In this document: positions 51,112 to 63,899 of the stretch, piece after piece
Layout of the letters: every line of letters begins with the position of its first letter
Position numbering within the stretch: the first letter of the stretch is position 1
Assembly (NCBI GenBank): GCA_963800125.1
Contig: CAWDAC010000030.1
Location: forward strand, 98,736 to 162,735
DNA: 64,000 nucleotides
Source: an uncultured Actinomycetota bacterium
GTDB lineage: Bacteria > Actinomycetota > Actinomycetes > Mycobacteriales > Mycobacteriaceae
Direction: 5' to 3'
Translations under genes and position numbers: made by a program
The notes under the pieces: generated by a model
Databases searched by the model: none
The model's input: only the letters and a program-made list of their open reading frames with translations
Told to the model about the DNA's origin: nothing

Positions 51112-51636
51112 TTAGCCGAGTGAGGCGCGATGCAGTTCGATCAGCCGCTGGTAGACCTCCGCGTTGTCGCGGTTGTTGGCTATCTCGGCATCGCTGAGTT
51201 CGCGCCGCACTGCACCGGGCACACCGGTCACCAGCGATCGAGGCGGTACCACGACACCCTGCGGCACCAACGCTCCCGCCGCGATCAATGAGCCCTTGCC
51301 CACCCGTGCGCCATTGAGGATGACGGCCCCCATGCCGATCAGTGCATCGTCCTCGACGACACAGCCGTGCAGCACGGCGTTGTGGCCGACGCTGACTCCC
51401 GCGCCGATGCTGACCGGGAATTCGGAGTCGACGTGGATGGTGACCCCGTCCTGGATATTCGTGCCGAATCCGATGTCGATCGGCTCGGCCTCGGCGCGCA
51501 GCGTGGCTCCGTACCAGACGCTGGCCCTGGCGGCGAGCGTGACCTGGCCGATCACGCTCGCGTTGGGCGCGACCCAGCTTTCGGCATGAAGCGAGGGTGC
51601 GCGACCGCGAATGGGCAGGATCAGCGGCTGAGGCAT
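51112..51636 (-). CDS. Gamma carbonic anhydrase-family (hexapeptide repeat) protein
   Basis: IGFGTNIQDGVTIH, VGHNAVLHGC, IGMGAVILNGA. Confidence 0.9.
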   Translation of the reverse strand: MPQPLILPIRGRAPSLHAESWVAPNASVIGQVTLAARASVWYGATLRAEAEPIDIGFGTNIQDGVTIHVDSEFPVSIGAGVSVGHNAVLHGCVVEDDALIGMGAVILNGARVGKGSLIAAGALVPQGVVVPPRSLVTGVPGAVRRELSDAEIANNRDNAEVYQRLIELHRASLG

Positions 51637-51722
51637 GCACGTCATCGTATTGACGCCCGCTACCTCCCGTTCATCCGCCATCCGATTCTCTGCCCTTGCG
51701 CCGATGGACCGGGGCGAGGTAC

Positions 51723-52268
51723 TCACGCCGCCCGCATTTCCTGCAGAGTCCCCCGGAGCGCCCGCAATGCATAATGCAGCCTCGACTTCACCGTGCCTTC
51801 GGCGATCTGGAGGTCCTCGGCGATACGCGCCACCGTCCAGCCCAGGTAATAAGAGCGCCAGACCACGGCGCGGTGTTCGGTGGACAACAGAGCCAGCGCG
51901 TGCCTGACCATCAGCCGGTCGATGGTGGCATTTGTGTCCTGCAGATCGACCGGCTCGCGGATGTGTGCGCCCTCCGGCATGGCTACTTCGTTGCGGAACC
52001 GAGCACTGCGGCGGTCGTCGATGACGATGTTGCGCGCGACGGTGAATAGCCAGGCCCGTGGCGATCGCTTGCTGTCTTCGGTGATTTCGGGGCTCCGCCA
52101 TGCGCGTAGCAGCGTTTCCTGCACCACGTCGTGCGCTTGGTGCGGGTCACCGGTCAACCGCAGGACATAGCGCCACAACGAGGCCGAGTGAACTTCGTAC
52201 AGCACGCTCAACCGGGAGGCGCCGGGACCCTGCGTCACTGGCAGATGACTCGGAAGTAGAGCCGGCAT
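51723..52268 (-). CDS. ECF sigma factor, SigL-like; start uncertain
   Basis: DVVQETLLRAW, WLFTVARNIVIDD, GTVKSRLHYAL. Confidence 0.88.
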   Translation of the reverse strand: MPALLPSHLPVTQGPGASRLSVLYEVHSASLWRYVLRLTGDPHQAHDVVQETLLRAWRSPEITEDSKRSPRAWLFTVARNIVIDDRRSARFRNEVAMPEGAHIREPVDLQDTNATIDRLMVRHALALLSTEHRAVVWRSYYLGWTVARIAEDLQIAEGTVKSRLHYALRALRGTLQEMRAA

Positions 52269-52378
52269 CTCTTCAACGATCACCCTCAAGAAGGGCCGTG
52301 TCGTCCCCGCTGCCACCCGTCAACGACCCCCGCCACCCGGTACTCACATCGGACCAACCTCACCTCTAGCAGCAGCGA

Positions 52379-52412
52379 TTGCAGACAACTACACTCTTGC
52401 AGTTAACTGCAA
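52379..52412. promoter_or_regulatory. Tandem palindromic operator candidates upstream of the luxE-like gene
   Basis: Perfect TTGCAGTTAACTGCAA (52397-52412) plus a 12/16 copy TTGCAGACAACTACAC (52379-52394). Confidence 0.7.
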
Positions 52413-52432
52413 TATCCCGTACCGTGCGTGAC

Positions 52433-53866
52433 ATGACGACACAGCAGTCGACCACGCCGGTTGAGCAGTTCATGGATGACCCGATCGCCTTCTTCGGCGA
52501 GTCGCTCACGCAGATGCACAGCATCCCCCGCAAAGAGCTGGAGGAGTTGCAACGCCGGGCCATGGCCATCCGGTTCGGCCAGCATCGGCAGAGCATCGAG
52601 ATGGTGCGCAAGCTGGCCGACCGGCTCGGCGTCACGGAAGTGAACGAATTCAACGACGTTGTCCCGCTGTTCTTCTCGCATACGGCGTTCAAGTCGTATC
52701 CGGCCGCGCTGATCGACAACAAGCGCTTCGACCTGATGACCAAGTGGCTGGACAAGCTCACCAGCCACGACCTGTCCGATGTGGACACCGACGGCTGCGA
52801 CAGCATCGATGAGTGGATCGACCGGCTCGACCAGCAGACACCGCTGGAGGTCATTACCTCCAGCGGGACCACGGGAACCTTGTCGATCATCCCGAAGGAC
52901 AAGCACGGCGCGCGCGAGGGCATGGTGCTCTGGAAGATCTGCTTGTTCCAGACCTTCGGCAACGAACCCACCGAAGAGCAGCTCAACCCGGCCGTCGACG
53001 TCATCTGGCCCAACTACGCCAGCGGAAAGCTCGGTCACCTGCGCATCGCGGCCATGATCAGGCGCGGGTTCACCGGTGGCGACGAGAGCAAGTTCCATGC
53101 GCTCTACCCCGACGCCATCGACACCGACCTGATGTTCCTGGCCTCGAAGATGCGGGCCGCCGCGTCCCGCGGTGAACTCGACCGCCTCGTCATCGACCCG
53201 GCGCTGGCCGCCCGCAAGGACGAGTTCATCGCGATGCAGGCACGTCAACCCGAAGACCTCGACCGGTTCTTCACCACGATCACCGAGAAGCTGCGCGGCA
53301 AGCGCGTATTCATGATCGGCGCCTACAACATCATGTACGACGTCGCCAAGGCCGGCCTCGAGCGCGGCGTCAAGAACGTCTTCGCCAAGGACTCGGCGAT
53401 CCTGACCGGCGGCGGGCTGAAGGGGGTGGCCCTGCCCGACGACTACATGGATGTGATCCATGGGTTCCTCGGGGTCGACCGGATCCAGGAGGGCTACGGA
53501 TTCTCCGAGCAGAGTGCGTTCCACTGGGGCTGCAGCGAGGGTCGATATCACGTGCAGCCGTGGGTGATCCCGTTCGTGCTCGACCCGGCGACCAGTGAGC
53601 CGCTTCCGCGCACCGGCAGGCAGACCGGCCGCGCCGCGGTCTACGACGTCCTCCTCAAGGCTCATTGGGGTGGCGTGATCTCCGGCGACGAGGTCACCAT
53701 CGACTGGGACCTGCAGTGCCCTTGCGGCCAGGCCAGCGTCGCGTTCGAGCACGACATCATCCGCTACAGCGAGAAGCAGGGTATTGACGACGACCGCATC
53801 ACCTGCGCGGCCACCCACGAAGTGCACAACGAGGCGGTCGACTTCATGAAGGCGTTCGAATCATGA
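52433..53866 (+). CDS. LuxE-like acyl-protein synthetase / ANL-type adenylating protein
   Basis: TSSGTTG P-loop, YGFSE, DEVTIDW..CPCG, C-terminal Cys (RITCAAT); 477 aa. Confidence 0.7.
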   Translation: MTTQQSTTPVEQFMDDPIAFFGESLTQMHSIPRKELEELQRRAMAIRFGQHRQSIEMVRKLADRLGVTEVNEFNDVVPLFFSHTAFKSYPAALIDNKRFDLMTKWLDKLTSHDLSDVDTDGCDSIDEWIDRLDQQTPLEVITSSGTTGTLSIIPKDKHGAREGMVLWKICLFQTFGNEPTEEQLNPAVDVIWPNYASGKLGHLRIAAMIRRGFTGGDESKFHALYPDAIDTDLMFLASKMRAAASRGELDRLVIDPALAARKDEFIAMQARQPEDLDRFFTTITEKLRGKRVFMIGAYNIMYDVAKAGLERGVKNVFAKDSAILTGGGLKGVALPDDYMDVIHGFLGVDRIQEGYGFSEQSAFHWGCSEGRYHVQPWVIPFVLDPATSEPLPRTGRQTGRAAVYDVLLKAHWGGVISGDEVTIDWDLQCPCGQASVAFEHDIIRYSEKQGIDDDRITCAATHEVHNEAVDFMKAFES

Positions 53867-55335
53867 ACAGCGCCTATACCGTTCCGCTCTTCCTCCGGGG
53901 CGAGCTCATCACCGATGACCTGGTGTCGTTCGGCACCCGAACCGGCGGTAACCAGTTCCAAGCGCCCGACATGGCCCGCTACGTCGACCGCCTTCCGCTC
54001 GCCACACCGATGGCGATGACCGACCTGAACGACCTCGCCTTCGACGAAATCCTCGATGTCCTCGAGGCATTGGGTGATGCACTCGACTTCGACCGCAACA
54101 CGCACTTGCAGGAGGCATACCAGGCGGCGCTGTCGGCCAACCCGCTTCCGGCCGGGATGTTGAAAAACAGTTACCAGATCCTGCGACCGCTGTTCTCCCG
54201 CGCCAACGTGCTCGAAGTCGCCGACACCCAAGTCGGTCTCGGCTATCTCAACGGCTGGGTGCCGCAACAGCTGGCCGACGGACGGGAATTGCGGGTCCGC
54301 GCCTTCGGAGCGCGGGTCCTGCACATCCCGGCGGGCAACGGTGGTCTTGTTTCGGCGGTGACGATCCTGCGATCGGTGATCACCCGCTGCGACACGATCA
54401 TCAAGGCCCCGTCGAACGACCCGCTGACCGCCGTTGCGATCGCCCGCACCCTCGCCGACGTCGCACCCGACCATCCGATCACCAAACACCTTGTCGTCGG
54501 GTACTGGAAAGGGGGCGACACCGCCGTCGAGGAGAAGCTGTACCGACCCGAGCACATCGAAAAGATCGTCGCCTGGGGAGGTTTGGCTTCGGTCAAGCAC
54601 GTCACCCGCTACATCCAGCCGGGCCTGGAGATGATCGCGCTCGATCCGAAACGCAGCGCGACGATCATCGGACGCCAGGCGTTCGATGACGACGAGACGA
54701 TGCGCGAGGTGGCTCGCTGCGCCGCCGTCGACATCGGCGTGGCCAACCAGGAAGGGTGCGCCAACGCCCGGGTCATCTACGTGATGAGCGGCACCGACGC
54801 CGCCGGCATCGCCAACGCCAACAAGCTCGGCGAGATGATCTACCAGGAGCTGACACGCCTGCCCTCGTTCGTCAGCACCCCGCCGCTCTACCCGAGCCTG
54901 GAGCTGTACGAGCATGTGGAGGCGTCCCGGATGACCGACGACTGGTATCAGGTCATCGGTGGCGAACATCGGGAAGGCGCGATCATCGTGTCGCAGTTCG
55001 ACTCTGCGGTGGACTACTCCGCGATGCTGTGCGGGCGGGTGGCCAACATCGTGCCGGTCGATAGCATCGACAAGGTGACCGAAGCGGTGACCGCATACAC
55101 CCAGACCATCGGCATCTACCCCGAATCGTTGAAACACGCACTGCGCGACACGCTTCCGTTGTTCGGCGCCCAGCGGCTCACCAGCCTCGGGTATGCCTGC
55201 AGCGTTCCGATCGCAGCGCCGCAGGACGCGATCGAGCCGATGCGCCGGATGTGTAAGTGGATCGTGGAAGAAGCGTGTGATCCCGACGTGGTGACACCGC
55301 TTTGGCGACTCGGCGAACCGGCGGCGCAGGCGTGA
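53863..55335 (+). CDS. LuxC-like acyl-CoA/acyl-protein reductase
   Basis: HIPAGNG, IIKAPSNDP, IVAWGG, ALDPKRS, NQEGCAN catalytic-Cys region; ATGA overlap with the upstream gene. Confidence 0.8.
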   Translation: MNSAYTVPLFLRGELITDDLVSFGTRTGGNQFQAPDMARYVDRLPLATPMAMTDLNDLAFDEILDVLEALGDALDFDRNTHLQEAYQAALSANPLPAGMLKNSYQILRPLFSRANVLEVADTQVGLGYLNGWVPQQLADGRELRVRAFGARVLHIPAGNGGLVSAVTILRSVITRCDTIIKAPSNDPLTAVAIARTLADVAPDHPITKHLVVGYWKGGDTAVEEKLYRPEHIEKIVAWGGLASVKHVTRYIQPGLEMIALDPKRSATIIGRQAFDDDETMREVARCAAVDIGVANQEGCANARVIYVMSGTDAAGIANANKLGEMIYQELTRLPSFVSTPPLYPSLELYEHVEASRMTDDWYQVIGGEHREGAIIVSQFDSAVDYSAMLCGRVANIVPVDSIDKVTEAVTAYTQTIGIYPESLKHALRDTLPLFGAQRLTSLGYACSVPIAAPQDAIEPMRRMCKWIVEEACDPDVVTPLWRLGEPAAQA

Positions 55336-56273
55336 TGGACGCGATTACCGCGCTTGAAGTGGTCAACGGTGTCGACCTGACCGGCAGGACATGCGTGATC
55401 ACCGGCGCATCGGCCGGATTGGGTCGGGAGTCCGCCAGGGCGCTCGCCGCGACCGGAGCGCACGTCGTCCTGGCAGCACGCAATCCCAGTGCCCTTGCCG
55501 AGGCCGAGGACTGGGTCCGCGCCGAGGTCCCGCAGGCGATGACATCGACCGTCGCGCTGGACCTCACGTCGTTGGCAGGCGTTCGCGCGGCCGCCGCCGC
55601 GATTGGACGCATCGCCCCGGCCATCCATGTGCTGATGAACAACGCCGGGGTGATGTTCACCCCGTTCAGCAGGACGGCCGATGGCTTCGAAATTCAATTC
55701 GGCACAAATCATCTGGGCCATTTCGAGCTCACCCGACTGCTCATCCCGCAGCTTGTCGCCGCCGGCGGCGCCCGGATCGTCATCTTGTCGTCTGACGGCC
55801 ATCAGATGGGCGATGTCGATCTCGACGACCCGAACTGGCGGCGCCGCGACTACGACAAGTTCGTCGCATACGGTGCGTCGAAGACCGCCAACATCCTGCA
55901 TATGGTCGAACTCGACCGACGACTGCGAGACAGCGGCGTGCGGGCGTACTCGGTGCACCCCGGCGTGGTCGCGACATCACTGGCCCGCCACATGAACCGC
56001 GACGACTTCAAGTCGCTGAGCCGCATGACGCCCGTACACACGGACCCGGGCAGGACAGCCATTGACGTGCGCCGTGACTTCACGATGCCCGAGCACGGGG
56101 CGGCCACCCAGGTGTGGGCGGCGGTGAGCCCGGAGTTGGCGGACGTCGGGTCCGTCTATCTCGCGGATTGCGCGGTCCACGACAACGTTGTGCCATACGC
56201 GGTCGATGAGAAGCATGCGCTGGCGCTGTGGGAGCTCTCGGAGAGGCTGTGCGTCGTGGGAGCAGAGCAGTGA
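55335..56273 (+). CDS. SDR oxidoreductase (retinol dehydrogenase/WWOX-like)
   Basis: TGASAGLG, NNAGVM, FGTNHLGHF, YGASK; TGATG overlap. Confidence 0.92.
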   Translation: MDAITALEVVNGVDLTGRTCVITGASAGLGRESARALAATGAHVVLAARNPSALAEAEDWVRAEVPQAMTSTVALDLTSLAGVRAAAAAIGRIAPAIHVLMNNAGVMFTPFSRTADGFEIQFGTNHLGHFELTRLLIPQLVAAGGARIVILSSDGHQMGDVDLDDPNWRRRDYDKFVAYGASKTANILHMVELDRRLRDSGVRAYSVHPGVVATSLARHMNRDDFKSLSRMTPVHTDPGRTAIDVRRDFTMPEHGAATQVWAAVSPELADVGSVYLADCAVHDNVVPYAVDEKHALALWELSERLCVVGAEQ

Positions 56274-56854
56274 ACAGGATCGACCGGCGCAAGATGGAGG
56301 TGCGCGAAAGGATACTGGGGGCAGCGTTCGATCTGTTCCTCTCCCAAGGCGTCTCGGCCACCACGATCGAAGAGATCTGCGAGCGTGCGGACGTCGCAAA
56401 TCGGACCTTCTTCAACCACTTCCCCACCCGGCAGGACATGATGCGCGCACTCGCCGAGCGACGCCTGCTCAACCTGCACGACGTCATCTTCGATCGGACC
56501 AGTGAACCGATCCCGGCCAGACTCATCGGAGTGTTCGACGACATCGCAACCGCCCTGGTCAAGTCGAGCTCTACCTATCGTGAGCTCATCGGCGAGATGC
56601 TGGCCAGTTCCGGATACGGCATTCAACGCGGCTTTGCCCTGCACGACACGTTTCTCGAGCTCGTCAAGGATGGCGTGGCCCGCGGCGAGGTCAGCGCCCG
56701 CCACGACGCCCAGACCCTGGCTGACATCCTCGTCAGCGCGCTGACGGGAGGAATCGTCAATTGGACTGTGGACAGGACATATTCGCTCGAGACAGGCCTT
56801 CACGACTTGGCCGTCGCACTGGCCGACCTTTTGGTGGGTGATTCAGACGGCTGA
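56270..56854 (+). CDS. TetR-family regulator
   Basis: ILGAAFDLF..TTIEEICERADVANRTFFNHFPT; GTGA overlap. Confidence 0.9.
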   Translation: MNRIDRRKMEVRERILGAAFDLFLSQGVSATTIEEICERADVANRTFFNHFPTRQDMMRALAERRLLNLHDVIFDRTSEPIPARLIGVFDDIATALVKSSSTYRELIGEMLASSGYGIQRGFALHDTFLELVKDGVARGEVSARHDAQTLADILVSALTGGIVNWTVDRTYSLETGLHDLAVALADLLVGDSDG

Positions 56855-57425
56855 CGTCGTATACCTGCGGTCGTACGACGATCGCAGTCGTAGCGACGAC
56901 GAGAGTGCGCGCAAAGTGATGGACGCGACCGTCGAATTGCTGCGGGAGGTCCCTTATTCCAGCGTCACCATGCGGTCGATCGCCAAACGCGCGGGCGTCG
57001 CGCATCGCGAAGTCCTCACCCACTTCCGGTCGAAGGACGCGATTGTCGCCGAGGTTTATCTGAAGCGGCTACGCGCCGCCCCGTTGATCCTCGACGTCGA
57101 GCAATCCGCCCAGGAGCGGATTGCCGCCCAGTTCTCACAATTGGTCATGTTGCTGGCGGACCAACCCGGTCTTACGGCCGCCTGCTCGAGCGCGCTGATC
57201 TGTGACGAGCCATCCATGCGCTCCATCCGGCAGCGGATCCACGCAGAATTGCACCGACGGGTGCGCACCACGCTGCGCTCAGGGGGATGGCCCGAGGTCG
57301 CCGAGACGCTCGAGTACGGGCTGATCGGCGCTTTGGTGAACGCAAGCTGCGGCGGCGACAGGTTCCGTCAGACGGCCGACGAGCTGGCCGGCGTGGTGTC
57401 CGTTGTGCTGCCCGACGGCCGCTAG
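56838..57425 (+). CDS. TetR-family regulator (second)
   Basis: VTMRSIAKRAGVAHREVLTHFRSKDAIV. Confidence 0.85.
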   Translation: MIQTADVVYLRSYDDRSRSDDESARKVMDATVELLREVPYSSVTMRSIAKRAGVAHREVLTHFRSKDAIVAEVYLKRLRAAPLILDVEQSAQERIAAQFSQLVMLLADQPGLTAACSSALICDEPSMRSIRQRIHAELHRRVRTTLRSGGWPEVAETLEYGLIGALVNASCGGDRFRQTADELAGVVSVVLPDGR

Positions 57426-57574
57426 GCGCGTCTCTCGCAAAAATCGAGCAGCCGATTACTCACCTCCGTCTAGGCGACGGGCGGACACTTAGTTCTCGGA
57501 CAAATCGATCCACGCTCGAGAAACGGGGGTCACGCCGATGCGCATCATCGTTAATATGGAGTGCTGTTGTGAGC

Positions 57575-58792
57575 ATGACTGACCCGGTCGTTTCTCGCGG
57601 CGCGGTGGAGTTCGATCCGTTTTCCGAGGATTTCTTCAACGCGCCCTTCGAGACGTACCGCCGCCTTCGCGATGAAGCACCGGTGTATCACAACGAGAAG
57701 TACGGCTTTTGGGCGCTGTCACGCTACGAGGACGTCGAGCCCGCGCTGAAGGACTTCGAGACCTACTCGTCGGCCAGGGGCATCACGCTCGACATGTACA
57801 AGGCCGAACCCGATCCGACACAGCCGCCGATGATCATCATGATGGACCCGCCCGATCACACCGTGATGCGCAAACTGGTCAACAAGGTGTTCACACCACG
57901 CGCGATCGCGGATCTTGAGGGGATGATTCGCCGGAAGATCACCGATGTCGCGGGCACTCTCGACGGCACGGCGTTCGATGTGGTCGCCGATTTCGGGGCG
58001 ATCTTCCCGGTCGAGATCATCTCCACGATGTTGGGCGTACCCGCTGAGGATCGACAACAGGTCCGGCTGTGGAGCGACAAGCAGCTGGAGCGTAGCCCTG
58101 GGGACTTCCATGTCCCGCCCGAAGGCGCCGAGGCCGCCGAGGCGATCAGCAGGTTCTACTACGAGCTGGTCTGCGAACGTCGGGCCAATCCGCAAGACGA
58201 CATGATCAGCAGACTTACCCAAGTCGACGTCATCCGTGGTGACGGTGTCGCGAAACTGACCGACCTCGAAATCGCCTCGTTCGCAATGATCCTCGGAGGC
58301 GCGGGTGCCGAGACGGTCGTGAAGCTCATCGGCAATGCCGCGGTCACCTTCGCCGCGAACCCCGACCAATGGCGGAAGGCTCCGCGAAGACAGGAGCAGG
58401 ATCCCCGGCGCGTTCGAGGAACTGCTCCGATATGAGGCGCCCTCGCAGTACCAGCTCCGATACAGCAAGCGTGACGTGGCATTGCACGGGGCAACCATTC
58501 CCGCCGGCAGCATCGTCATGCTGATCAACGGGTCGGCGACGCGCGACGAGCGAGCCTTCGCCGATGCCGATCGATTCGACATCGACCGGACACCGTCCGG
58601 GCACAATCTCAATTTCGGGTATGGCGTCCACAGCTGCCTCGGCGCCGCCCTCGCACGTATGGAGGGCCGGATCGCGCTCGATGTCATGCTCATTTGATGC
58701 CCGAATACAAGGTGGACACCGCCGGACTGCGGCGGGTCGCGATGGCGAACGTGGCGGGCTGGTCGAACGTGCCGATCCAGGTGATTCGCTGA
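57575..58792 (+). CDS. Cytochrome P450, frameshifts near 58378 and 58692
   Basis: MDPPDHT, LGGAGAET I-helix, EELLR, FGYGVHSCLG heme motif. Confidence 0.9.
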
Positions 58793-58814: not shown

Positions 58815-59773
58815 TTAAACGCCCTGATAGACCTTGCGATAGCTCGACGGGGACATGCCCATCCCGCGGCGTAGGTGGTGTCGCAGATTTCCGCCGGATC
58901 CAAGCCCCGACAGCCGGGCGACCTCATCGATGGGTAGGTCGCGCGATTCGAGGAGTTCGCGGGCCCGGTCGACGCGTCGGCTTCGTATCCACGCTCCCGG
59001 CGACTGCCCGGTCTCTTCGCGGAACCGCCGATTGAACGTGCGCGCGCTCATCCTTCGCGTGCCGGGCCAGCCGCTGCACCGTCAGCTCCTCGTCCAGATG
59101 CCGCAGCGCCCACTCCCGCGTTCCCGCGGTCGAGTAGTGATCCGGAGTCGGTATCTGCCGATCGATGAACTGCGCCTGACCACCTTCACGCCACGGCGGC
59201 ACCACGCAGTACCGGGCAACGGCGTTGGCCACCTGCGCGCCGTGGTCACGTCGAATGATGTGTAGGCACAAGTCGATTCCGGCCGCGAGTCCCGCAGAAG
59301 TCAATACGTCGCCATCATCGACGAATAGCACGTTCTCATCGACCAGCACCTCGGGGTGCAGCCGGCGCATGGAGTCGGCGAACTTCCAGTGCGTGGTCGC
59401 GGGCCTTCCGTCGAGCATCCCGGCGGCTGCGAGCACGAACGCACCGGTGCAGATCGACACCAGCCGGGTGCCCGGGCGGATCAGCGCCAGCGCGGCGGAG
59501 GCCTCGCCGGGCAGCACGCCGTCGACGCGGGCGGGCGGGTATCGCGTGCCGGGGATCACCACGGTGTCGGCGGTCGGCCAGCGCCTCGGGGCCGGCGCTG
59601 GGCAGTACGTCGAAACCGGTCGTCGCCTCGACCGGGCCGCGCGTCAGTCCACACGTGACCACCTCGTAGAGCGCATTGCCGTCGACGTCGGTGGCGCTGG
59701 AAAACAGCGTCGGCGCGATCGCGGCATCGAACCCAACCACGGGCGGCAGCAGGAGGACGGCGACACGATGCAC
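58815..59773 (-). CDS. GlxA-type DJ-1/AraC regulator, +1 frameshifts near 59576 and 59052
   Basis: LVSICTGAFVLA, TSAGLAAGIDL, REGGQAQF, MSARTFNRRF. Confidence 0.88.
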
Positions 59774-59856
59774 GGTACCCAATCTGGCATGTTTTTGACG
59801 ATTGTTGTCATTCATGCCACTGGGCTCCGACGGGATCGATCCGCCACAGTGGATGG

Positions 59857-61144
59857 GTGACGCTCGCCGCCGCAGACAAACGCACGCCTATCAGCCGTAT
59901 GCACTGGGCCTGGGTGGTGGCCGCGGTCAGCTTCATCGCGATCCTCGGCGCGGCGGGTTTCCGCTCGGTTCCCGGCGTGATGATGGGCCCGCTGCACCAC
60001 GAGTTCGGCTGGTCGCACGGCATGGTCGGGCTGGCGATGTCGGTCAACATGACGTTGTTCGGCCTGACCGCCCCGTTCGCCGCGGCGTTGATGGACCGGT
60101 TCGGCGTGCGTCCGGTGCTCTCGGCGGCACTGATGCTCATCGCGGCGGGATCGGCGCTGAGCGTCTGCGATGACGGCCAGTTGGCAGCTCGTGCTGCTGT
60201 GGGGCGTGCTGGTCGGCGTCGGCACCGGCTCGATATCGATGGGCTTCGTCGCCACCGTGGCGACCCGCTGGTTCGATGCGCGACGCGGCCTGGTGACCGG
60301 CGTGCTGACCGCGGCGAGCGCGACGGGTCAGCTGATCTTCCTGCCGATCGTCGCCGAGGTCACCACCCGCCACGGCTGGCGCTGGGCGTCACTGATCGTC
60401 GCCGCCGCCGCGCTGGCTGTGGTGCCGCTGGTCGTGGTGTTCATGCGAAATTATCCGCAGGACAAGGGCTTAACGGCCTACGGCGCCTCCGGCACCGAGC
60501 CTGCCGAGCCCGCCGCGGTACCTGCCTCCAGCTTCCGCGCCGCGTTCGACGGGCTGCTGCTCGGCGCGAGGGTGCCTGCGTTCTGGCTCCTGGCCGCTAG
60601 CTTCGCGATCTGCGGCATGACGACCAACGGCCTGATCGGCACGCATTTCATCCCGGCGGCCAACGACCACGGCATGCCGACCACCGTCGCGGCGGGACTG
60701 CTGGCCACCATCGGCATCCTGGATGTCGCAGGCACCGTGTTCTCCGGCTGGCTAACCGACCGAGTCGATCCGCGGCTGCTGCTGGTCGTGTACTACACCG
60801 GGCGCGGCGTCTCGCTGCTGCTGTTGCCGTCGCTGCTTTCGCCGCAGGCCGAACCAAGCACCTGGGTGTTCGTCATCTTCTACGGGTTGGACTGGGTGGC
60901 CACCGTGCCGCCGACGATCGTGTTGTGCCGTAATTACTTCGGTACGAGCTCCCCCGTGGTATTCGGCTGGGTCTTCGCATCGCACCAAGTCGGTGCGGCG
61001 ATCGCCGCCGCAGGAGCGGGCAGGCTGCGCGATCTGCAGGGCAATTACGACCTCGCTTTCTACCTTGCCGCCGCCCTTTGCCTCGTCGCCGCCGTGCTCT
61101 GTGCGAATGTTCGCAAAGCGCAGGTCAGCACCCCCGCGACATAA
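59857..61144 (+). CDS. MFS transporter, frameshift near 60165
   Basis: AAGFRSVPG, LMDRFG, FAICGMTTNGLIGTHF, GWVFASHQVG; divergent from the GlxA regulator. Confidence 0.85.
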
Positions 61145-61958: not shown

Positions 61959-62757
61959 CTAGCGCGCCTTCCAGACGGGCTGACGCTTCTCGGCGAACGC
62001 CAGCGGTCCCTCCTTGGCGTCCTCGGAACGAATCAGCGTCCCGATTTCGCGCATGGTCCTGTCCCAGCCGGGCTCGTCGCCGGTGATGACGCCGTCGTCG
62101 ACGCCCATGGCCACCCGCTTGCTTGCCCACACCGCCAGCGGCGCGTTGACGGTGATCCGTTCGGCGAGCGCCAGCGCCGCGTCCACCGCGGTGCCGTCCG
62201 GCACCACCTGGTTGATCAAACCCCACTTCAAGGCATCCGCCGATGACATCGGGTCACCGGTGAACATCAACTCCATCGCGACCTTGCGCGGAAGCTGCTC
62301 GGCGAGCCGGAACACGCCACCGGCCGCAGCGATCAGACCGCGCTTCACCTCGGGCAGCCCGAACGTGGCGCTCTGGCCCGCGACGACCAGATCACTGGCC
62401 AGGGCGAGTTCTGTTCCGCCACCCAGCGCGGTGCCGTTGACTGCCGCAATGGTCGGCTTGTCAATGAAGTGGCGCACGTAACCGGCGAAACCCCATTCGC
62501 TGTGGTCCGGGTGATAGATGTTCTCCCTGCGGGAGATCGCCTTCAGATCGGCTCCCGCGCAGAAGGATTTCACCTGCGCCGGTGATCACTACCGCCCGCA
62601 CCTCCGGATCGTCCTGCGCCTCCTGCAGCGCGTCGCCCACCGCGAGGCTGACCGCGCTGTTGACGGCGTTGCGGGCCTGGGGCCGGTTCAGCGTGATGAC
62701 GAGGACATTTCCCCGCCGCTCAGTGAGAGCAGCGGGGGTGGTCACGTCACTGGTCAC
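61959..62757 (-). CDS. Crotonase/enoyl-CoA hydratase (Rv1136-like), frameshift near 62575
   Basis: ITLNRPQARNAVN in one frame, FCAGADLK...ALGGGTEL...FGLPEVKRG in the next. Confidence 0.88.
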
Positions 62758-63899
62758 AGCAGCTCGATGATGGTGGCGTTGGCCTGGCCGCCGCCCTCGC
62801 ACATGGTCTGCAGGCCGTACTGAATTCCCTTGTCCCGCATGTGGTACAGCATGGTGGTCATGATGCGGGCACCGGATCCTCCGAGCGGATGCCCGAGCGC
62901 GATCGCACCGCCGTTGGGATTGAGCTTCTTCTCGTCGGCGCCGATGTCCTTCAGCCACGCCAATGGCACCGGGGCGAATGCCTCGTTGACCTCGAACACG
63001 CCGATGTCCTCGAGCTTCAGACCCGACTTCTTCAGCGCCTTCTGGGTGGCGGGGATCGGCGCGGTCAGCATGATGACCGGGTCGGCGCCGGCAAGCGTCG
63101 CGGTGTGCACCTTGGCGATCGGCTTGAGCCCCAACGACTTCGCCTTCTCCGCAGACATGAACAGCAGGGCGGCCGATCCGTCGGAGATCTGCGACGAGTT
63201 GCCCGCGTGGATCACGCCGTCCTCTTTGAACGCCGGCTTGAGCTGAGCCATCTTCTCGATGGTGGTGCCGCGGCGGATGCCCTCGTCCTTGAGCACGGGA
63301 TTTCCGTCCTGGTCCTTGATGGCCACGATCTGGTCGTCGAACGCACCGGAATCCTGTGCCGCGGCGGCCTTTTCGTGCGAAGCCAGCGAGAACTCGTCGA
63401 CCGCGGTGCGGTCGAATCCCCACTGCTCGGCGATCATCTCGGCGCCGATGCCCTGGTTCGGCGTCTGGCTGTAGCGATTGCGGAAAGCCTCGGGATACGG
63501 ATGTCCACCGTTGGCGAGCGAGGCGCCCATCGGCGTGCGCGACATCGACTCAACGCCGCCGGCGACCACGACGTCGTAGTGCCCGGCGACCACACCGGCG
63601 GCTGCGAAGTGGATGGACTGCTGACTCGATCCGCACTGGCGGTCCACGGTCACACCGGGGACGCTCTCAGGCCAACCCGCAGCCAACAGCGCGGTGCGGC
63701 CGATGTCGAGTGCCTGCTCGCCGGCCTGCATGACGCAGCCCCAGATGACGTCGTCGACGATGCCGGGGTCGATGCCGGTCCGCTCGGCGAGGCCGTTGAG
63801 AACCTGTGCGGACAGTTCGGCGGGGTGCACTCCCGACAGGCCGCCATTGCGCTTGCCGATCGGTGACCGCACCGCCTCGACGATTACGGCTTCAGCCAT
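62754..63899 (-). CDS. fadA: Acetyl-CoA C-acyltransferase (thiolase)
   Basis: VDRQCGSSQQ, NEAFA, GGAIALGHPLG, MCEGGG. Confidence 0.93.
   Translation of the reverse strand: MAEAVIVEAVRSPIGKRNGGLSGVHPAELSAQVLNGLAERTGIDPGIVDDVIWGCVMQAGEQALDIGRTALLAAGWPESVPGVTVDRQCGSSQQSIHFAAAGVVAGHYDVVVAGGVESMSRTPMGASLANGGHPYPEAFRNRYSQTPNQGIGAEMIAEQWGFDRTAVDEFSLASHEKAAAAQDSGAFDDQIVAIKDQDGNPVLKDEGIRRGTTIEKMAQLKPAFKEDGVIHAGNSSQISDGSAALLFMSAEKAKSLGLKPIAKVHTATLAGADPVIMLTAPIPATQKALKKSGLKLEDIGVFEVNEAFAPVPLAWLKDIGADEKKLNPNGGAIALGHPLGGSGARIMTTMLYHMRDKGIQYGLQTMCEGGGQANATIIELL

Follow-up and report, generated by a model that had tools for sequence, protein, structure and literature searches.

What might a pair of genes resembling luxE and luxC do in a member of the Mycobacteriaceae where neither luxAB nor luxD accompanies them? 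The question is raised by a stretch of 64,000 nucleotides (referred to here as the window) from a soil mycobacterium, an uncultured Actinomycetota bacterium (GenBank assembly GCA_963800125.1, contig CAWDAC010000030.1, positions 98,736 to 162,735 of the forward strand). Here, a luxE-like gene, a luxC-like gene, a gene for a short-chain dehydrogenase/reductase (SDR) and two genes for TetR-type regulators (tetR1 and tetR2) follow one another on the plus strand, with a sequence homologous to cytochromes P450 behind them. An earlier note on this DNA had proposed that the pair acts as a split, two-protein carboxylic acid reductase apart from luminescence, either feeding the SDR or running oxidatively after the P450. 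The analysis described below makes it probable that the luxE-like, luxC-like, SDR and tetR1 genes form an inducible, TetR-repressed operon that would convert an acid to an aldehyde and further to an alcohol independently of coenzyme A (CoA), by means of a relay between Cys458 of the luxE-like protein and Cys299 of its luxC-like partner.

The reduction of carboxylic acids is rare in nature and of considerable value to biotechnology. To our knowledge, the only well-understood acid reducers are the carboxylic acid reductases (CARs) that resemble nonribosomal peptide synthetases (NRPSs) and the LuxCDE complex of luminescence. If the proposed function is correct, the operon is a compact LuxCE-type system with a built-in putative aldehyde reductase and a dedicated predicted sensor-repressor. 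Judged from the genes, the chemistry of the operon is the expected one, and what appears to be new is the combination of a long-form LuxE and a LuxC with an aldehyde reductase and a defined TetR switch.

The paired enzymes

The luxC-like gene (53863-55335, plus strand) encodes a predicted acyl-thioester reductase of 490 amino acids. Its product matches the Pfam LuxC family (PF05893) with 126 bits against a cut-off of 21, over model positions 2 to 401 of 401, and aligns over residues 94 to 470 with LuxC of P. phosphoreum (PDB 7XC6, chain A; E = 1.8e-26). In this alignment Cys299, which lies within the sequence NQEGC, is placed opposite the catalytic Cys of chain A (QQAC; Cys296 in the P. phosphoreum enzyme). 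Among eight diverse luxC-like partners (32-69% identity) residues N295, Q296 and C299 are invariant. The score with the NCBIfam LuxC equivalog (NF052251) is 131.6 bits, far under the cut-off of 750, and the protein is assigned as a solid member of the LuxC family that is not a lux orthologue. The QEGCAN motif given for this protein in the earlier note is found in the translation, as are the SSGTTG and RITCAAT motifs given for the luxE-like protein.

The luxE-like gene (52433-53866, plus strand) is predicted to encode a long-form acyl-protein synthetase of 477 amino acids. Taken singly, the window protein scores 18 bits with the NCBIfam LuxE model (cut-off 550) and matches LuxE of the P. phosphoreum complex (7XC6, chain E) with E = 0.22; a precomputed match to Pfam LuxE (PF04443) is carried by many of its orthologues. 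A profile built from 57 members of the family, which share 26-55% identity with the window protein, finds 7XC6 chain E as its best match among all PDB sequences (E = 1.7e-10), followed by PaaK ligases (6e-8 to 2e-7). The significance of the LuxE assignment therefore comes from the family profile, the match of the single protein being weak.

The residues that define the mechanism of LuxE offer a more direct comparison. The P-loop SSGTTG (S143-G148) is conserved and is common to LuxE (SSGTSG) and PaaK. Lys330, within GGGLK (consensus GGGxK), is present in 52 of the 57 family members and in all 80 mycobacterial orthologues (80/80), and it aligns with the GGGWK sequence of LuxE, whose Lys238 is essential and takes the place of the A10 lysine (PMC9157457). 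Near the C-terminus a CxCG motif (429-432; C429 in 55/57, C431 and G432 in 56/57) aligns to residues 312-323 of the 436-residue PaaK protein BT_0428. Together with C367 and H373 (the latter in 57/57) its cysteines make up a near-invariant Cys/His cluster (C367/H373/C429/C431) that is common to PaaK (BT_0428) and possibly binds a structural metal; where LuxE aligns, the position of C367 is taken by a residue other than Cys. Behind this cluster stands the tail residue Cys458, within GGDD[KR]I[TS]C, which is kept in 54 of the 57 family members and in 80/80 orthologues and may be compared with the LuxE tail TRxxKGC364. HMMER left the two cysteines unaligned, and their likely equivalence is suggested by position and by the preceding basic residue. 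A comparison of motifs suggests that GGDDK is what is left of the A8 hinge of ANL enzymes and that the Cys follows it immediately.

The end of the protein is as telling as its motifs. A confident AlphaFold model (pLDDT 92.8) has just two short helices beyond residue 436, and 45 residues follow the CxCG motif compared with about 113 in PaaK, so that the ANL C-terminal subdomain is absent, as it is in LuxE; a PaaK-type C-terminal subdomain with its A10 lysine was not found in the luxE-like protein. The protein can thus be described from its sequence as LuxE-like in the features that define the mechanism and PaaK-like in its core, and it is plausibly an evolutionary intermediate between PaaK and LuxE.

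The nearest experimentally studied counterpart is the LuxC-LuxE complex of P. phosphoreum (PDB 7XC6; Tian et al. 2022, PMC9157457). In both systems the genes lie side by side, the adenylating enzyme lacks the ANL C-terminal subdomain, and the reductase has an ALDH fold in which, as described for LuxC and predicted here, the Cys is the only catalytic residue retained. The resemblance extends to the SSGT[ST]G loop and the GGGxK lysine, to full-length LuxC homology, and to a Cys that follows a basic residue in a short C-terminal tail (K-G-C in LuxE, [KR]-I-T-C here). The differences are also considerable. The luxE-like protein is about 100 residues longer, owing to an N-terminal extension and inserted helices, and it retains the PaaK-like Cys/His cluster while falling below the Pfam LuxE cut-off. 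Its Cys opens a predicted helix and is 19 residues away from the C-terminus, whereas that of LuxE is 10 residues away and belongs to a flexible tail. The genes run E-C here and C...E in the lux operon, the pair is coupled here to an SDR and a TetR gene, and luxA, luxB, luxD and luxG are all lacking at the operon.

The absence of luxAB and luxD noted earlier is upheld on a larger scale. No match to LuxD (PF02273) is found in the genome, and the 65 matches to luciferase-like monooxygenases, a number that is usual for mycobacteria, include none on the contig nearer than 150 kb to the operon. Profiling or visual inspection of neighbouring genes, which covered part of the recurring open reading frames, also showed no LuxD or luciferase-family gene. 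The absence of LuxD from the genome, and of luciferase-family genes from the vicinity of the operon, leads us to reject luminescence or a concealed lux system. The so-called lux-like mel2 locus of M. marinum (PMC1793995) was likewise considered as a relative and rejected, as it comprises different domain families and has no LuxE homologue.

The conserved unit and its predicted switch

The extent of the system was delimited by comparison with 80 fetched mycobacterial loci, 61 of them long. Wherever the contig allows, luxC follows luxE in all 80. The SDR gene, directly downstream of luxC, is present in 56 of the 61 long loci and tetR1 in 55, and no other neighbour occurs in more than about half of them. 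The conserved unit thus consists of the luxE-like, luxC-like, SDR and tetR1 genes. Orthologues of tetR2 (at least 63% identity) are confined to the nearest relatives (8/80 loci); this gene is a local add-on and a bystander, contrary to its earlier inclusion in the cluster. Of the neighbours with which the pair might have been expected to co-occur, the SDR is confirmed by the counts above and the P450, seen at two loci, is not, and the picture of the cluster is corrected in that both the P450 and tetR2 become bystanders.

The five plus-strand genes from luxE-like to tetR2 are translationally coupled and tightly packed, and the gene series and stop/start overlaps described in the earlier note are real. 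The luxE-like and luxC-like genes share an ATGA junction (53863-53866) and the luxC-like and SDR genes a TGATG junction (55333-55337). The SDR gene (55335-56273) meets tetR1 (56270-56854) in a GTGA junction (56270-56273), and tetR1, the conserved local regulator, overlaps tetR2 (56838-57425) by 17 nt (56838-56854). A gap of 150 bp separates tetR2 from the P450 sequence. The local G+C content around the operon is about 62-66%. The SDR is of the classical type (PRK06196/RDH-like), scoring 110 bits with the Pfam adh_short family and 320 bits with PRK06196, and it is assigned to an RDH/POR-like clade. Its translation contains YxxxK and, following beta-2, the sequence LAARN. An Arg at this place points to NADPH use in SDRs generally, and the LAARN Arg suggests the same for the window enzyme, a putative NADPH-dependent aldehyde reductase. 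Both regulators match Pfam TetR_N (45.7 bits for tetR1, 47.8 for tetR2). Comparison of tetR1 and the SDR with solved structures gave generic matches only and no clue to the substrate.

Upstream of the luxE-like gene the sequence has the features of a dedicated switch. A perfect palindrome of 16 bp, TTGCAGTTAACTGCAA (52397-52412, plus strand), is the putative TetR1 site (operator 2) and abuts the promoter; a conserved imperfect palindrome in register with it, TTGCAGACAACTACAC (52379-52394, plus strand), forms operator half 1. A putative -10 box, TACCGT (52420-52425, plus strand), lies 7 nt ahead of the ATG at 52433. In an alignment of 27 upstream regions a TAnnnT-type hexamer is kept at the -10 position, with the ATG directly next in about half of them. 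These features are consistent with a leaderless mycobacterial promoter, with operators abutting its upstream side and a predicted transcription start at or close to the ATG. The chance expectation of the palindrome TTGCAGTTAACTGCAA in the window is 0.03. The same sequence has one exact copy in the 6.2-Mb genome, matches with three mismatches being at control level, and a wider TetR1 regulon is rejected in that no second operator copy exists there.

The operator is conserved together with the operon. In 79 of the 80 loci the pattern TTGC-N6-CTGCA occurs in the 200 nt upstream, compared with two matches in the remaining 1.23 Mb of locus DNA, and the double-site motif stands upstream of the luxE-like gene in 75 of the 80. 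It is kept across loci although the flanking genes differ. At one locus with the order tetR-luxE-luxC (L085) the motif is found upstream of tetR. That the motif moves with tetR strongly suggests that TetR1 is a dedicated, autoregulated predicted repressor of the operon.

The pair of luxE-like and luxC-like genes is present in a single copy in this genome. Relatives of the luxE-like protein with 79-94% identity occur in many Mycobacterium and Mycolicibacterium genomes and in metagenome-assembled genomes (MAGs) from soil and peat, the nearest named species being M. moriokaense; in Mycolicibacterium moriokaense DSM 44221 (L004) the operon is 94% identical. The luxE/luxC module is accessory: of 301 genomes sampled from the taxonomic family, 35 have a homologue of any kind, and even in the genus itself a close orthologue is rarely present. 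An 80%-identical operon also occurs in a MAG labelled Nocardioides sp. (L063), either through horizontal transfer or as a binning error.

The wider family is large and varied in its surroundings. Of the 943 cluster representatives that an exhaustive search yielded, 244 reach E<=1e-30, and most are about 450-490 amino acids long. Every distant member that was looked up (28-56% identity) adjoins a LuxC-family gene and often also a TetR gene, and on one JGI contig (of P0128) the luxE-like/luxC pair is duplicated in tandem. Within the Mycobacteriaceae, another genus commonly has a paralogue with 32% identity, in a cluster (L089:4371-14448) with genes for an ACAD, a glyoxalase, an SDR and a TetR regulator on one side and those for a luxE-like protein (432 amino acids), LuxC, an aldo-keto reductase, an ALDH, a CMD and a HIBADH-like protein on the other. 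In the same family, a further homologue (L094) has an SDR and a TetR gene on the opposite side of the pair, and a 37%-identical homologue (L092:4834-14217, minus strand) lies directly downstream of a type I polyketide synthase (PKS) module of 1773 amino acids (KS-AT-KR-ACP), with a P450 nearby, in what looks like a biosynthetic use of the pair. Given these varied arrangements, the pair is best regarded as a portable module that serves in several contexts.

The proposed relay and its competitors

By analogy we infer every chemical step of the pathway, its independence from CoA, the direction of the reaction, the repression by TetR1 and the class of substrate. TetR1 would bind the two palindromic operators at the leaderless promoter until released by a ligand, presumably the substrate or the aldehyde. 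The luxE-like enzyme would then convert a carboxylic acid and ATP into acyl-AMP and pass the acyl group to its own tail residue Cys458, just after the A8-hinge-like GGDD[KR]I. From here the tail would hand the thioester to Cys299 of the luxC-like partner, which would use NAD(P)H to release it as a free aldehyde, and the co-translated NADP-type SDR would reduce the aldehyde to an alcohol. The relay is modelled on the 7XC6 complex (PMC9157457). As a best guess the substrate is a free fatty, aromatic or other lipophilic acid, and the purpose detoxification or assimilation. The earlier idea of a split acid reductase apart from luminescence gains from the solid LuxC match, the LuxE hallmarks and the adjacency of the pair in homologues down to 28% identity. 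The idea that the pair feeds the SDR also fits the data, in that the SDR usually follows, and the non-homologous aldo-keto reductase in SDR position in the paralogous cluster (L089) supports an aldehyde-to-alcohol step.

Several observations weigh against this reading. With the Pfam LuxE profile (PF04443) the window protein scores 24.1 bits, just under the cut-off of 24.9, and over its C-terminal half only; of the likeness to LuxE and LuxC claimed earlier, the LuxC part stands at once and the LuxE part becomes significant through the family profile. A Foldseek search with the model of the luxE-like protein returns PaaK-family ligases as best matches (E about 1e-12, TM about 0.5-0.57), and LuxE is not among its top 50. 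In the mycobacterial orthologues T149 and R455 are fixed and Q433 is found in 70 of 80, in place of the K, K and R usual in the family as a whole; these are interpreted as stable substitutions with no sign of decay. In 8 of the 80 loci the pair is preceded by the best SDR match (45-79% identity), and at others no such match is seen, which makes the step to the alcohol dispensable; the true ALDH gene in the paralogous cluster (L089) would oppose a simple reductive route. The conflict between fold, which favours PaaK, and profile, which favours LuxE, is settled by the residue evidence described above.

The fold matches speak for a rival, CoA-dependent scheme, in which a PaaK-like acyl-CoA (or acyl-AMP) ligase and an ordinary acyl-CoA reductase would work through free acyl-CoA and no protein thioester relay would exist. 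The PaaK family (PaaK1/PaaK2, 2Y27/2Y4O; BT_0428, 4R1L; NatL2; AjiA1), besides being the best fold match, has in common with the luxE-like protein the P-loop, a YG(M/L)SE motif and the Cys...His...CxCG cluster, and LuxC itself reduces acyl-CoA in vitro (bioRxiv 10.1101/2025.08.11.669332). PaaK enzymes, however, make a CoA thioester with the help of a C-terminal subdomain of about 110 residues that bears the A10 lysine, whereas the luxE-like protein stops 45 residues past CxCG, has the LuxE-type GGGxK lysine and the near-invariant tail Cys, and is always paired with a LuxC-type reductase. The lack of the subdomain would exclude the conformation in which a CoA thioester is formed, and the strict adjacency and ATGA coupling with luxC fit a complex of the two proteins. 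A CoA-dependent pathway is accordingly considered rather unlikely. Much the same standing is given to a biosynthetic role, in which the pair would not process external acids but would supply a particular aldehyde or alcohol to the synthesis of a cell-envelope lipid, a wax ester or a secondary metabolite. The homologue that directly follows the PKS module (L092) is an example of this kind, LuxC relatives function in tambjamine biosynthesis (bioRxiv 10.1101/2025.08.11.669332), and in many slow-growing mycobacteria the operon lies beside psd, pssA and other lipid genes recognised by eye. Such a role is nevertheless improbable for the mycobacterial unit, as this is an isolated four-gene cassette with its own predicted repressor, changing neighbours and a patchy distribution among the genomes of the family, and no carrier protein, synthase or acyltransferase is conserved alongside it.

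Far less credible is the oxidative alternative, in which a lipid, terpenoid or aromatic substrate would be hydroxylated by the P450, with the SDR and the luxC-like enzyme running in the oxidative direction. The proximity of the P450-homologous sequence, on the same strand 150 bp after tetR2, speaks for it, but the P450 frame (57575-58792, plus strand) carries two frameshifts. Its homology is spread over three reading-frame pieces, and comparison with the undamaged genes at two related loci (L007 and L014) shows a surplus base at 58374/58375 and the loss of one after 58691. The first frame stops at 58433-58435, and the two frameshifts put the heme-Cys segment out of frame. Since the P450 is frameshifted here and orthologous intact copies occur at those two related loci only, it is placed outside the conserved unit and the system; the suggestion that it is a pathway member, with oxidation following hydroxylation, falls with it. 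In addition, an adenylating enzyme that consumes ATP would be senseless in the oxidative direction, and LuxC-type enzymes as a class are without the catalytic Glu and Asn of ALDH (PMC9157457).

For the favoured reading, a TetR-repressed and CoA-independent acid reductase operon, two further comparisons are instructive. NRPS-like CARs (of the Nocardia/Mycobacterium FadD9 type, A-PCP-R) convert acid, ATP and NADPH to aldehyde via an enzyme-bound thioester, and they occur in mycobacteria. By this established knowledge the net chemistry would be the same as that predicted here from the genes. A CAR, however, is one polypeptide with a phosphopantetheine arm and an SDR-type R domain, whereas here there are two proteins, a Cys side chain as putative carrier and an ALDH-fold reductase. 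TabE is a stand-alone LuxC-like acyl-ACP/CoA reductase from the biosynthesis of tambjamine BE-18591 (bioRxiv 10.1101/2025.08.11.669332). It resembles the luxC-like protein as an actinobacterial ALDH-like thioester reductase with an aldehyde product and, in its case, an essential Cys, and differs in having no LuxE partner, in using ACP or CoA thioesters and in lying inside a biosynthetic gene cluster. Apart from TabE, the literature on LuxE and LuxC in mycobacteria and actinobacteria that was found in the library searched consists of reporter-gene papers, the mel2 work and a MAP deletion table in which fadD genes are loosely labelled 'LuxE like'. No literature on this operon or on non-luminous LuxE partners in actinobacteria was found in that library, nor any paper assigning the cluster, which agrees with the earlier statement that no characterised mycobacterial pathway of this kind was known.

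A broader interpretation is put forward tentatively. The long LuxE of about 470 amino acids could represent a distinct family between PaaK and LuxE, in which the PaaK Cys/His cluster is retained while a Cys tail replaces the CoA-binding lid and which, together with LuxC, the SDR and a dedicated TetR sensor, would provide mycobacteria of acid soil and peat with an inducible, CoA-free conversion of toxic or nutrient acids (fatty, aromatic or humic-derived) to alcohols. Mycobacteria would then possess a second route of carboxylate reduction, mechanistically unlike that of the NRPS-like CARs. The long form may also illustrate the evolutionary path from an acyl-CoA ligase to a relay of protein thioesters. 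With the predicted operator now defined, the system is directly testable; the pair of TetR1 and its operator could serve in a search for the acid that acts as inducer, and so identify the substrate.

Frameshifts and neighbouring genes

The frameshifts in the P450 are part of a wider pattern. In the 5.2 kb downstream of the operon there are six, distributed over the P450, a GlxA/AraC-type regulator, a major facilitator superfamily (MFS) transporter and one more gene, compared with none in the 5.0 kb of the operon. The regulator gene, which includes a DJ-1/PfpI domain (58818-59806, minus strand), is spread over three frames with frameshifts near 59576-59601 and 59053; it is intact (329 amino acids) at two related loci (L004 and L007). 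The MFS transporter gene (59836-61138, plus strand) is in two frames, split at about 60168, and its product has 434-445 amino acids in relatives. The further gene (61962-62793, minus strand) is split near 62551-62570. Elsewhere in the same genome several of the luciferase-like monooxygenase matches lie in adjacent pieces, some with internal stops (for example C50:16547-17238 and C26:131791-134712), and such fragmented matches indicate many frameshifts genome-wide. Both those downstream of the operon and those elsewhere are either true pseudogenes or assembly indel errors.

On the other side of the operon, and divergent from it, lies a gene for an extracytoplasmic function (ECF) sigma factor recognised by Pfam (51723-52316, minus strand). 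It is followed by a conserved gene without a Pfam match (51115-51684, minus strand) that possibly encodes an anti-sigma factor. These two genes are shared with the nearest relatives only (L013 and L014).

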